A stretch of 3,167 nt of DNA from Escherichia phage ECO95 1-6-1, in sequence record OR845350.1. One strand, 5' to 3'. Both the position numbers and the translations under genes were made by a program. Under the pieces are notes generated by a model. It ran no database searches. It saw only the letters and a list, made by a program, of their open reading frames with translations, and had not been told where the DNA came from. Every line of letters begins with the position of its first letter. The stretch's first letter is position 1. This document shows positions 1 through 3,167 of this stretch, piece by piece.

Positions 1-1806
1 CTCCAGGCTTTGTGCCGACTGTTTGCATTTGATCCATCATTACGCCGTATTCAGCGCTCAGACTTCCATGTCCCGCACGATGAACAAGAAGCGCCCGAAG
101 AAAGGCAGTTATGGATTGAGGCGGACTTCGTTTTTCCCGAGTTGGAGGGTGAAGAAGATAACTCAAGCGTTGCTCCCCATTTCAGTCACATGCGCCTTGA
201 TGACCCTGACGGAATTCCTCGGGTACGGTATCGCCTAAGTGCCACTATGGGCCTAGATGGAGATATTGATGAAGCTTTCGTGTATGTGCTTGAAGTTGGT
301 CCGGACGGCTCACCTATAAATCCTGAAACAGTTCCTCGATCTGACCGAAATCACATACAAGTCCACTATCTGCCAGCCAGGAGAGATCCTACTGACCACA
401 TAGCATACGGAACGAGTGCGCTGCTTGGCCGCTTGCTACGTGCCGTGAACTGGGAAAATGAACGAGAAAAGGTCAAAGGGTTCACCGACCAGATTAGTGA
501 GAGCCTGGCTGCTAATTCATCGGTTAATGCTTTTAGCTCCCACCTGAAGAAAATATGGGGCACCCTCCATAAAGGCAGCTACTTTACAGATCCCAAGATT
601 ACTTTTGTGGCATCTGAGATCGAGGCGTTGCTTCGTCATTTGTCCGTATCATTCTCGCCTGGACATGATGACAATCTTGTCGATTTTTCTCGACTCAGTG
701 ACGGTCAGAAGTCGATGCTCTATCTATCGTTGGTTCTCTCATCTCAAGCTGTTGGTCGTGCTGTCCTTGCCGGTGAGGACGACTCTTTTGACCCTGAAAA
801 GTTGCGTCCGCCAGTCTTTACTTTAATAGCCCTTGAGGAACCAGAGAACAGCCTCTCACCTCACTATTTGGGAAGAATTGTTAACGCTCTTAACTCAATG
901 ACGAGTAACGAGGATGCTCAGGCCCTAGTCGCTACGCATGCTCCGTCGATGTTGCGACGTGTCGATCCGGAACATATTCGATATCTTCGACTTACTGAAA
1001 CCCGGCAATCAAGAATTAAGAAAATCCAATTACCCGCTAAAACCGATGAAGCGCACAAATTTGTACGTGAGGCTGTCCAGGCATTTCCTGAGATCTACTT
1101 CTCTCGTTTGATTGTGTTGGGTGAAGGGGATAGCGAAGAAATTGTATTACCGCGCCTTTTCCAAGCAAAGGGTGCGCCAGTTGATGAATCAGCGGTTACG
1201 ATTGCTCCGCTTGGAGGTAGGCATGTAAACCATTTTTGGCGTCTGTTATCCGAACTGCAAATCCCATTTTTGACTCTTCTAGATTTAGATGTGGGCAGAT
1301 ATCAAGCGGGCTGGGGAAGAATAAAGTATGTAAATAACCAACTTGGTTTGTATCAACCTGAAAAGGTACTACCAACTACTTTTTCTTTATCAGATTGGAA
1401 TGATGACAAAGTACCTGTTCGTACACATCATTTCTTTGAAAACGGCACTAAGAGTGTATTTTTAGAGCTGGAAACACGTGGTGTTTTTTTCTCATTTCCA
1501 ATGGATTTAGATTTTTCAATGCTTCTTGCTTTCCCTAATGCGTACGGTGTTCAGCAGGAGGTTTCAGATGAGTCTACGATTAAAGCCGTTTTGGGTAAGA
1601 GCCATCATGGCTCATACCAATACAGCGGAGACGAGTTAAATCTTTTCTCTACGTATCACAAGCTTTTTAAACTGGGTAGTAAGCCCGCTGCGCATATAGA
1701 TGCTCTTGCTCAACTGAGCAACGAGGAATTGCTGGCGAACATGCCAGGATCATTTGGACGACTTGCAGATGCCGTGATAGCCAAGCTTGCGGAGCTGCCC
1801 GAGTGA
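1..1806 (+). CDS. gajA: OLD-family ABC-type ATPase fused to TOPRIM nuclease domain (GajA-like / Class 2 OLD-like endonuclease); 5'-truncated by the window edge
   Basis: Frame 1 is open from base 1 to the TGA at 1804-1806; the TTG at 10 in the ORF track is not the true start. Motifs appear in ABC-ATPase order: signature-like LSDGQKS (694-714), Walker B VFTLIALEEPE (814-846), H-loop LVATHAPS (925-948). The TOPRIM region follows, with LIVLGEGDSEE (1108-1140, the EGDS-type catalytic glutamate motif) and a DxD motif LLDLDVG (1279-1296). No Walker A (GxxxxGK[ST]) occurs in the window, so the N-terminus lies upstream. Gene symbol is by architectural analogy only. Confidence 0.8.
   Translation, partial: LQALCRLFAFDPSLRRIQRSDFHVPHDEQEAPEERQLWIEADFVFPELEGEEDNSSVAPHFSHMRLDDPDGIPRVRYRLSATMGLDGDIDEAFVYVLEVGPDGSPINPETVPRSDRNHIQVHYLPARRDPTDHIAYGTSALLGRLLRAVNWENEREKVKGFTDQISESLAANSSVNAFSSHLKKIWGTLHKGSYFTDPKITFVASEIEALLRHLSVSFSPGHDDNLVDFSRLSDGQKSMLYLSLVLSSQAVGRAVLAGEDDSFDPEKLRPPVFTLIALEEPENSLSPHYLGRIVNALNSMTSNEDAQALVATHAPSMLRRVDPEHIRYLRLTETRQSRIKKIQLPAKTDEAHKFVREAVQAFPEIYFSRLIVLGEGDSEEIVLPRLFQAKGAPVDESAVTIAPLGGRHVNHFWRLLSELQIPFLTLLDLDVGRYQAGWGRIKYVNNQLGLYQPEKVLPTTFSLSDWNDDKVPVRTHHFFENGTKSVFLELETRGVFFSFPMDLDFSMLLAFPNAYGVQQEVSDESTIKAVLGKSHHGSYQYSGDELNLFSTYHKLFKLGSKPAAHIDALAQLSNEELLANMPGSFGRLADAVIAKLAELPE
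694..948 (+). other. C-terminal half of the ABC-type ATPase core of gene 1 (signature motif, Walker B, D-loop, H-loop)
   Basis: LSDGQKS at 694-714, VFTLIALEEPENSLSP at 814-861, ATHAPS at 931-948, read directly from the frame 1 translation. Confidence 0.6.
1108..1296 (+). other. TOPRIM catalytic core of gene 1 (conserved glutamate motif and DxD motif)
   Basis: LIVLGEGDSEE (1108-1140) resembles the TOPRIM EGDS glutamate motif of topoisomerases, primases and OLD nucleases. DLD at 1282-1290 is a candidate metal-binding DxD motif. Confidence 0.55.
1789..1794 (+). promoter_or_regulatory. Putative Shine-Dalgarno sequence (GCGGAG, GGAG core 1791-1794) for the helicase gene, embedded in the 3' end of the upstream gene
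   Basis: GGAG lies 8 nt upstream of the GTG at 1803. That GTG overlaps the upstream TGA stop (GTGA, 1803-1806), an arrangement typical of translational coupling. Confidence 0.4.
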
Positions 1807-3167
1807 TTGCTGTAGATGCATGGTTGCCTTCTGATGGGCTAACACTTGAACCCAATGCTCTGCTGGCTGCGAAGGAACAAGCGCGCTGTCTTGCACTGAC
1901 TGCGGGGCCGGGAGCGGGCAAGACGGAAATGCTTGCACAGCGAGCTGACTTCCTCCTCCGAACCGGAACCTGCCGTTATCCGAAGAGAATACTCGCTATT
2001 TCTTTCAAAGTTGACGCCAGCAAAAACTTGAAGGAGCGAATCCAGCGACGCTGTGGACAAGAATTGGCTTCCCGTTTTGATAGCTACACATTTCATGCGT
2101 TTGCAAAGCGTATTATTGATCGCTTCCGAGTAGTGCTTACTGGTAATGATGCTCTGGATACGGATTATTCGATTGGCGAAAGAAAAGTCACAAGAAGGCA
2201 AATTACATTTCATGATCTTGTGCCGCTAGCAATTCAAATTCTCAAGGCCTCTGTTGTCGCAAGAAATGCCATACGCCAAACTTACAGCGATGTTTTCTTG
2301 GATGAATTCCAAGACTGCACGGATCAGCAATATGAACTCGTTAAGGTAGCTTTCCAAAGTACAAGCATTCGTCTTACCGCTGTCGGTGACACCAAGCAGA
2401 AAATCATGGGATGGGCAGGAGCTTTGGACGGAATTTTCCAAACGTTCGCTAAGGATTTTTCAGCCGTACCACTAAACATGTACCGAAACTTTCGTTCAAA
2501 ACCACGCCTGCTTCGGATGCAGAACGAGATAATTCGTGTGCTTGATCCAGCTTCCGTTATGCCAGATCACCAACTTGCTGGTGAGGAGGGAGAGGTTTTC
2601 GCGTGGCAATTCGAGAATGCACAGGGGGAAGCTGAGTATTTGGCCGATTTGATTGCCGGGTGGATAAGAAATGAAAAGGTTCCGTTGTCCGAAATCGCCG
2701 TATTAGTGTCCAAACAACTAGATCTTTATGCCAACCACTTGATGACGGCATTGGAAGTTAGGGGAATACCGTACCGGAACGAGCAGGAGATGCAGGATAT
2801 TACTGTTGAACCTGCCGCGAGGCTCGTTGTTGACTATTTGTCCTGCCTCTACGGCCAGCGAGAGCCCAAAGCTTGGGTTCGGCTTATGAATCAATTGATT
2901 CCCTTTGCTGATGATGAGGTGCAGTCTAGCGCTAGGCAAAGCTTCCAACGCTTCTTCAAGGAGCAGAGAAAAATCATCACCATGACCGAGCTGTTGGATG
3001 AGCCGTTTTCGGGATGGTGGGATTCTGTGTGTAGCTTTCTGAAGAAAATAGGAATGGAGACTCTTGTTGCTCTCTCGCCCGACTATGAGTCACATGCTAG
3101 GTTAGGTGAAGTTGTGAGAGATACCAAAGCGCGCATTGAAGAATTGCTTGAACTTACCCCCGATTTG
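1803..3167 (+). CDS. gajB: UvrD/PcrA/Rep-like superfamily 1 DNA helicase (GajB-like); 3'-truncated by the window edge
   Basis: Frame 3 is open from the stop at 1680-1682 to the last base of the window, with no stop codon; it is missing from the ORF track, presumably because it has no stop in the window. SF1 motifs in canonical order: Walker A/motif I LTAGPGAGKT (1896-1925), motif Ia-like ISFKVDASKNLKERI (1998-2042), motif II VFLDEFQD (2292-2315), motif III LTAVGDTKQKIMGWAGA (2373-2423), motif IV YRNFRS (2481-2498). Motifs V and VI would lie beyond the window. Start assigned to GTG 1803-1805, the first start codon in frame after the stop; TTG 1824 is the alternative, and the first in-frame ATG (1929) falls after Walker A so cannot be the start. 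Confidence 0.8.
   Translation, partial: MIAVDAWLPSDGLTLEPNALLAAKEQARCLALTAGPGAGKTEMLAQRADFLLRTGTCRYPKRILAISFKVDASKNLKERIQRRCGQELASRFDSYTFHAFAKRIIDRFRVVLTGNDALDTDYSIGERKVTRRQITFHDLVPLAIQILKASVVARNAIRQTYSDVFLDEFQDCTDQQYELVKVAFQSTSIRLTAVGDTKQKIMGWAGALDGIFQTFAKDFSAVPLNMYRNFRSKPRLLRMQNEIIRVLDPASVMPDHQLAGEEGEVFAWQFENAQGEAEYLADLIAGWIRNEKVPLSEIAVLVSKQLDLYANHLMTALEVRGIPYRNEQEMQDITVEPAARLVVDYLSCLYGQREPKAWVRLMNQLIPFADDEVQSSARQSFQRFFKEQRKIITMTELLDEPFSGWWDSVCSFLKKIGMETLVALSPDYESHARLGEVVRDTKARIEELLELTPDL

Follow-up and report, generated by a model that had tools for sequence, protein, structure and literature searches.

Genes for class 1 OLD nucleases stand alone, and genes for class 2 OLD nucleases stand in tandem with a gene for a UvrD/PcrA/Rep-like helicase. 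The two-gene system Gabija of Bacillus cereus VD045 (PDB 8SM3, 8U7I, 8J4T, 8TJY) consists of GajA, an OLD-family ATPase with a TOPRIM nuclease domain, followed by GajB, a UvrD-like superfamily 1 (SF1) helicase. Here we analyze a stretch of DNA of 3,167 nucleotides filed as Escherichia phage ECO95 1-6-1 (sequence record OR845350.1), which we call the window, and which carries two genes of the same kinds in the same order. We identify these genes as S024 and S023, two open reading frames (ORFs) in the backbone of Salmonella genomic island 1 (SGI1), a chromosomal antibiotic-resistance island, and we consider it very likely that they form a Gabija-type module with a mechanism like that of the B. 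cereus system.

In B. cereus, a GajA tetramer and GajB form a 4:4 complex that is required for defense (PMC10781630), with GajB docking at the ATPase half of GajA. The B. cereus GajA is a site-preferring DNA nicking endonuclease, and its TOPRIM activity is suppressed by physiological levels of nucleoside and deoxynucleoside triphosphates (NTP and dNTP) by way of the ATPase-like domain (PMC8136825). Three GajA substitutions (E379A, D511A, and K541A) eliminate cleavage, and a fourth, H320A, relieves the inhibition by ATP (PMC8136825). It has been proposed that the nuclease is released when phage replication depletes the nucleotides, and GajB hydrolyzes (d)ATP and (d)GTP once DNA ends are present. 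A plasmid-borne Gabija has also been studied in E. coli ECOR49, where it protects against phages, shows synergy with tmn, and depends on ATPase, TOPRIM, and helicase residues.

The original prediction for the window, a model's reading of the letters and their ORFs, was an OLD-family ATPase-TOPRIM gene followed by a UvrD-like helicase gene, both of them truncated and overlapping by 4 nucleotides on the same strand, and it took the pair to be Gabija. Our analysis bears out each of these points. Frame 1 of the plus strand is open from base 1 to a TGA at 1804-1806 (601 codons, with no start within the window), and a second plus-strand ORF starts at the GTG at 1803 and is unterminated at the 3′ end of the window (455 codons), such that the gajB start and the gajA stop share the four letters GTGA. 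In Pfam, the first ORF matches OLD-like_TOPRIM (E-value 2e-15), AAA_21 (7e-12), DUF2813 (7e-7), and AAA_15, and the second matches UvrD-helicase (3.5e-34), AAA_19 (5e-16), and UvrD_C (9e-10). Such E-values, in ORFs of more than 600 and more than 450 codons, are far beyond chance. The PADLOC models for the two Gabija proteins give 1026 bits for GajA (PDLC00097, profile positions 41-640 of 640) and 764 bits for GajB (PDLC00144, profile positions 1-455 of 559), in line with the truncation of both genes. For GajA this is far above, and for GajB clearly above, the scores of models for other systems. Outside Gabija, GajA scores next best with the Old model (62 bits) and with AriA, which reaches 53 bits over the ATPase part, and GajB with RTasHel (218 bits).

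What defines Gabija is a GajA with an N-terminal ABC-type ATPase fused to a TOPRIM domain at the C terminus, which we observe in the Pfam, PADLOC, and PDB matches (the latter both by sequence and by fold); a GajB that is a UvrD/PcrA/Rep-like SF1 protein, for which we observe motifs I-III in the window and motifs V and VI on an identical contig; and gajA directly followed by gajB on the same strand, which we observe here as a conserved two-gene unit. An OLD nuclease gene in tandem with a UvrD/PcrA/Rep-like helicase gene is also the arrangement of class 2 OLD. We classify the pair as a Gabija-type (class 2 OLD) module, in which GajA is the predicted OLD-family ATPase and TOPRIM nuclease, and GajB the predicted UvrD-like SF1 helicase/NTPase, translationally coupled to it.

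The ends of the two genes can be read in Salmonella. The window is 100% identical over 3167 nucleotides to bases 1927-5093 of OX345320.1 (locus L001 in what follows), a 20,389-bp linear contig, filed as "plasmid 134", from strain SV10192 of Salmonella enterica serovar Kentucky, which came from a Spanish poultry farm. The complete gajA (L001 1807-3732) encodes 641 amino acids beginning MKLHS, and its ATG is preceded by a Shine-Dalgarno-like AAGGA; codons 1-40, which fall 5′ of the window, include the Walker A motif GPNGSGKT. The complete gajB (L001 3729-5390) encodes 553 amino acids, and motif V (TIHKSKGLEF) and motif VI (VGVSRAKRR) fall 3′ of the window end. The original prediction had named an upstream Walker A and motifs V and VI as features to look for in the complete genes, and all of them are present. 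The record itself is labeled a plasmid (non-mobilizable in PLSDB), yet it is a linear contig of the chromosomal island SGI1.

Which evidence ties these genes to SGI1? For the SGI1 backbone, the second part has been described (PMC9035990) as S023 (uvrD), S024 (ybjD), S025 (sgiT, a subtilisin toxin), S026 (sgiA, an AAA ATPase antitoxin), and res. On the Kentucky contig, the genes are an S8 subtilase (sgiT, cut by the contig end), gajA (S024), gajB (S023), a tyrosine-recombinase-like gene (mpsA-like integrase), traH, traG, an IS3-family transposase, a truncated traN, and repA, an order that agrees with the published backbone read in reverse. In addition, putative LexA-like 20-mers have been tabulated with coordinates in AF261825.2, the SGI1 reference (PMC9927553). 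All four 20-mers that we tested are present with zero mismatches. Two of them fall inside the window (1730 and 2841) and are 1111 nucleotides apart, which is the published distance; the one in the mpsA-like gene lies 2186 nucleotides further on, again the published distance; and the one in traH lies 4492 nucleotides further on (vs. 4493 published). For the first motif, the published offset of +1849 relative to the start of S024 agrees with the ATG at L001 1807, and the published -74 relative to the start of S023 agrees with the GTG at window 1803. Because the 20-mers are exact and keep the published spacing (to within 1 nucleotide for the one in traH), the two genes are those named S024 ("ybjD-like exonuclease") and S023 ("uvrD-like helicase") in the SGI1 backbone. 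The window corresponds to about 18985-22151 of AF261825.2 on the reverse strand, a match that rests on the four 20-mers, their spacing, the start offsets, and the gene order.

Within the window, no difference from the SGI1 reference is detectable; the surrounding island differs from it in being of the H/K/L type, in which IS1359 replaces traN-S009. This exchange is the mark of the SGI1-H/K/L group present in Kentucky ST198 (PMC7056807), and the insertion sequence that we observe between traG and the truncated traN fits it (the IS3-family transposase is at L001 15994-17207). We assign the window to an IS1359-bearing SGI1 of the H/K/L type from serovar Kentucky, of which it covers most of S024 and most of S023.

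Both complete proteins are found verbatim in a public collection, each in at least 1000 contigs, under the names "MULTISPECIES: AAA family ATPase" and "ATP-dependent helicase [Gammaproteobacteria]". As an example outside Salmonella, a Providencia chromosome carries intI1, res, sgiA, and sgiT with the genes for both proteins, at 100% identity, downstream of them. The SGI1 Gabija pair is already known at the level of annotation. Papers on SGI1 have annotated S024 and S023 among the backbone ORFs since at least 2002, and a survey of S. Typhimurium from 2023 reported Gabija and ietAS, as assigned by PADLOC, in association with the SGI1 integrase, and also found the two combined in other Salmonella and in Proteus and Vibrio (PMC9958689).

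SGI1 DNA also stands in GenBank under phage names. Positions 1-311, 313-2632, and 2913-3167 of the window are 100% identical to three records named "Salmonella phage S.Kent 1-2-1" (OR851626, OR851246, OR851053). Being short unannotated contigs, these three phage-named records give no evidence of a phage origin. SGI1 DNA filed as phage contigs could be carry-over of host DNA, or it could be the packaging of island DNA in phage particles.

The coupling of the two genes is conserved well beyond SGI1. Our family scan of species-representative genomes gives 74 related loci (GajA identity 33-100%), most of them in Gamma- and Betaproteobacteria. A GajB homologue comes directly after GajA in 70 of the 74, and the remaining 4 stop at a contig edge. 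When both genes are complete (60 loci), an RTGA overlap is found at the same position in all but two; in 31 relatives the overlapping start is ATG, which supports the GTG at 1803 as the true gajB start. The two exceptions (L058 8001-9924 in Enterobacter mori, and L059 8001-9897 in a Sutterella metagenome-assembled genome) have a gajA broken by a premature stop and an intact gajB. When we cluster the flanking ORFs, the commonest family is found in at most 9 of 60 loci. With no third conserved gene in the flanks, the unit is a self-contained pair. Residues K37, S273-Q276 (ABC signature), E319 and E320 (Walker B), H353, E415, D468, D470, D542, D544, and K601 are invariant in 26 GajA relatives, and the GajB helicase motifs are invariant in 25 relatives.

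The distribution of the pair is patchy. A megablast search of the window against complete E. coli genomes finds no match, and a search in sensitive mode finds relatives in 5 of 5426 complete E. coli genomes, at about 68-70% identity. Relatives of the SGI1 GajA are also found on 68 plasmid records from several phyla (E ≤ 1e-20), a large protein collection has more than 5500 homologues at E ≤ 1e-10, and identical proteins are common to different genera. In four of five sampled loci, a neighbor of the pair is a known defense gene (IetA and IetS, Lamassu LmuB, Avs2, or a DolB/PDC-M37B-like gene). Such a distribution, patchy, mobile, and often beside defense genes, is what anti-phage systems usually show.

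In SGI1 itself, sgiA and sgiT (S026/S025) are directly upstream of gajA on the same strand (sgiT at L001 26-1729; the complete pair in locus L002 at 4370-5359 and 5380-7923). In PADLOC, the two products score as IetA at 262 bits and as IetS at 84 bits, and therefore two defense-type modules adjoin in the SGI1 backbone. A literature search found no paper using both names, sgiAT and IetAS; the likeness of sgiAT to the pTiC58 system was noted by Huguet et al. (2016). In the 77 nucleotides between sgiT and gajA (L001 1730-1806), our scan finds no sigma-70-like promoter, so S024-S023 may be co-transcribed with sgiAT. A related arrangement occurs in at least 6 of the loci L003-L009 (the short contig L006 excepted), where an S8 subtilase is directly upstream (about 4540-7923) of a GajA that is 94% identical to that of SGI1; in L003, the upstream pair is scored as IetA and IetS. 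The subtilase of these loci is just 23-24% identical to sgiT. That the subtilase has diverged so far while the adjoining GajA is 94% identical suggests an exchange of modules, with a distinct IetAS variant coming to stand beside a near-identical Gabija.

How does the SGI1 pair compare with the systems that have been studied in the laboratory? The original prediction had proposed a comparison with the B. cereus proteins and with class 2 OLD structures, and all of them are recovered by sequence, and GajA and class 2 OLD also by fold. In relation to CHARACTERISED proteins by sequence, the SGI1 GajA is, among solved structures, nearest to the class 1 OLD of Thermus scotoductus (PDB 6P74), which matches it over both domains (2.8e-11 with the single sequence, 1e-19 with a family profile), then to the B. 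cereus GajA (5e-8 with phmmer, 7e-13 with a family profile), and then to the C-terminal regions of class 2 OLD from Burkholderia pseudomallei and Xanthomonas campestris (PDB 6NK8, 6NJV/W/X), whose TOPRIM core aligns at 3e-6. For the SGI1 GajB, the nearest are Rep, UvrD, and PcrA (about 1e-23 to 1e-24), with the B. cereus GajB next (1.5e-15, phmmer). K37 (the Walker A lysine, read on the identical contig), H353, E415, and D468/D470 of the SGI1 GajA stand opposite K35, H320, E379, and D432/D434 of the B. cereus protein.

For the comparison by fold, we used an AlphaFold model of a full-length proxy 95% identical to the SGI1 GajA, built on a shallow alignment (30 sequences, 76-95% identity). The mean predicted local distance difference test score (pLDDT) of the model is 58, and the model is confident just for residues ~400-640. 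Because a model this poor gives low global template modeling (TM) scores, we use its Foldseek matches for ranking alone. At the top are B. cereus GajA chains (E-value 5e-11), followed by the T. scotoductus OLD, the retron Eco8 effector, and the class 2 OLD C-terminal regions. The latter superpose on the C-terminal region of the model at TM 0.57-0.66 with 12-18% identity by fold; the class 2 OLD structures are solved for the C-terminal regions only, and it is to these that the likeness applies.

The differences from the B. cereus system are also clear. The SGI1 proteins are longer (641 amino acids for GajA vs. the 578 of the B. cereus PDB chain, and 553 for GajB vs. 493-499), and we count a DUF2813-type N-terminal region in the SGI1 GajA as a further difference. 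The Gabija of ECOR49, although like the SGI1 pair a Gabija of an enterobacterium, appears to be of a different subtype. The numbering of its GajA (K35, H317) resembles that of the B. cereus protein, and the 104 E. coli plasmids with tmn-Gabija are evidently outside the 68 plasmid records that match the SGI1 GajA. Class 1 OLD differs in another way, in that the SGI1 gajA has a conserved, translationally coupled helicase partner. Judging by these comparisons, we place the SGI1 pair as a true member of class 2 OLD/Gabija, of a subtype remote from the experimentally studied one.

Under the B. cereus-like mechanism that we favor, a GajA tetramer would bind GajB in a 4:4 complex, as expected by homology with the VD045 proteins. 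At normal NTP and dNTP levels, nucleotide bound at the GajA ATPase domain would hold the TOPRIM nuclease off. A replicating phage would drain the nucleotide pool, and the released nuclease would nick or cleave DNA. GajB, stimulated by the resulting DNA ends, would then hydrolyze (d)ATP and (d)GTP, and so reinforce the block of phage replication, possibly as abortive infection. For the SGI1 pair, the sequences themselves show the domain architecture, the conserved motifs, and the coupling of the genes; we infer the complex, the nucleotide gating, the DNA targets, and the protection by analogy with the B. cereus system, and on that analogy the pair probably protects against phages.

Several observations weigh against this reading of S024/S023 as a Gabija module of B. 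cereus-like mechanism. The best sequence match of GajA among solved structures is a class 1 OLD and not a GajA, and the subtype looks remote from the characterized B. cereus system, both in the phmmer E-values given above for GajA and GajB, and in the 14-17% identity of the two GajA proteins in fold alignments. A phmmer comparison with the C-terminal 247 residues gives an alignment that stops at the DxD motif, leaving D511 and K541 of the B. cereus protein without mapped partners; we infer D542/D544 and K601 as their candidate counterparts. In the AlphaFold model, pLDDT falls below 50 at residues 153-385, so that its ATPase half is unreliable. In our literature search, no paper turned up that tests the SGI1 pair or any close relative against phages. 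Finally, papers on SGI1 variants (PMC9035990, PMC7056807) describe SGI2, in which the resistance region lies inside S023, SGI1-L2, with an insertion in S024, and SGI-V, which is without both genes. Since these variants live on in nature with S023 or S024 interrupted or deleted, the module is dispensable cargo.

A more adventurous reading starts from the distance between the two subtypes. With a GajA at ~15% identity to that of B. cereus, this proteobacterial Gabija could differ in its trigger or target, could act on plasmids that enter the cell, or on other mobile elements, in addition to phages, or could work with the adjacent sgiAT (IetAS-like) as one defense-plus-addiction cassette. We regard this as rather unlikely. 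If there were such a defense-plus-addiction cassette, it could aid the success of epidemic clones that carry SGI1 (DT104, Kentucky ST198), as well as resistance to phage biocontrol in poultry.

The pair could also serve the life cycle of SGI1 instead of phage defense, whether by maintaining the island, replicating its excised form, expelling or restricting its IncC/IncA helper plasmid, or acting on competing mobile elements. S024 and S023 do belong to the conserved backbone, where they adjoin the sgiAT addiction module and mobilization genes, and SGI1 is known to destabilize IncC plasmids (PMC10954446). The B. cereus Gabija prefers circular supercoiled DNA in vitro, so action against plasmids is conceivable. 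But deletion of S023-S027 in SGI1-C left the loss of the IncC plasmid unchanged, and the incompatibility was mapped to the hijacking of parABS (PMC10954446). For ALTERNATIVES, the expulsion of an IncC helper plasmid by the pair is unlikely. Moreover, dozens of genomes carry the pair with sampled flanks that are not SGI1, several of them beside phage-defense systems, and several SGI1 variants persist in nature although S023/S024 are absent from them or interrupted. We take a role in the SGI1 life cycle to be improbable.

A general nuclease-helicase pair for DNA repair or recombination, with no role in conflict, is more improbable still. It would explain why the best sequence relatives of GajB among solved structures are the housekeeping proteins Rep, UvrD, and PcrA, and it agrees with labels given in the literature (uvrD/ybjD, "exonuclease/helicase", "replication, recombination and repair"). 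However, GajB scores 87-107 bits against the NCBIfam equivalogs for PcrA, Rep, and UvrD, whose cut-offs are above 900, and because these scores are so far under the cut-offs, GajB is not a housekeeping helicase. Nor is a repair role what one expects for a pair with a patchy distribution on mobile elements (few complete E. coli genomes, plasmids, genomic islands), with identical proteins across genera, and with defense genes as neighbors in most of the sampled loci.

The least credible alternative is another OLD-family system (a P2 Old-like class 1 protein, PARIS with its AriA/AriB, the retron Eco8 effector, or Septu/PtuA), which can claim the class 1 OLD as best PDB sequence match, the low Old and AriA scores in PADLOC, and weak partial NCBIfam matches of GajA to PtuA, the retron Eco8 effector, and MAD3, but these scores are at least 15 times lower than those of the GajA models and far under curated cut-offs, the UvrD-like partner that defines class 2 OLD/Gabija is kept in 70 of 74 loci where class 1 OLD genes are stand-alone, the ATPase carries its TOPRIM as a fused domain and is partnered by a helicase where PARIS has an ABC ATPase without TOPRIM and a separate TOPRIM/DUF4435 protein, and neither the clustered flanking ORFs nor the scanned neighbors include a reverse transcriptase or a DUF4435/HNH family.

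Among the vehicles of multidrug resistance in Salmonella, Proteus, and related bacteria, SGI1 is a major one, and if its Gabija pair is active, every strain acquiring the island would gain phage defense along with antibiotic resistance. An active SGI1 Gabija would also bear on phage-based control of Salmonella in food animals.

The features of the two genes within the window are collected in the table.

Table. Features of the SGI1 S024/S023 pair in the window (positions count from the first base of the window).
Feature	Position	Strand	Basis or remark
gajA = SGI1 ORF S024, residues 41-641 and stop	1..1806	+	open frame; PADLOC GajA
ABC-type ATPase, C-terminal lobe	559..954	+	Pfam AAA_21 7e-12, AAA_15
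ABC signature motif LSDGQ	694-708	+	within gajA ATPase lobe; translation-checked
Walker B LIALEEPE	823-846	+	within gajA ATPase lobe; translation-checked
H-loop His353	937-939	+	gajA; aligns with B. cereus GajA H320
TOPRIM nuclease core	1099..1290	+	gajA; Pfam PF20469 OLD-like_TOPRIM 2e-15
TOPRIM catalytic Glu415 in GEGDSEE	1120-1140	+	aligns with B. cereus E379
TOPRIM DxD motif D468-L-D470	1282-1290	+	aligns with B. cereus D432/D434
C-terminal nuclease region of gajA	1504..1683	+	invariant columns; model pLDDT 75-94
D542-L-D544	1504-1512	+	gajA; family-invariant; candidate counterpart of B. cereus D511
K601	1681-1683	+	gajA; family-invariant; candidate counterpart of B. cereus K541
GTGA start/stop overlap (translational coupling)	1803..1806	+	
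gajB = SGI1 ORF S023, residues 1-455 of 553	1803..3167	+	UvrD/Rep/PcrA-like SF1 helicase
gajB motif I AGPGAGKT	1902-1925	+	coordinates checked
gajB motif II DEFQD	2301-2315	+	coordinates checked
gajB motif III GDTKQ	2385-2399	+	coordinates checked

Beyond these two genes, the window shows little else. No Rfam family matches either of its strands, the repeats in it are short pairs at chance level, and a promoter scan of the window stays at background. A terminator scan gives 11 sites vs. 4.5 expected, none of them informatively placed for the operon, and the antisense ORFs of the window reach at most 124 amino acids, which we take as by-products of the long sense ORFs. The base composition is uneven, with a G+C of 39% at about 1200-1650 vs. 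47% for the whole window, and this dip is found in and near GajA residues ~485-530, where the protein varies most, after the DxD motif and before the conserved PMDLDF segment.

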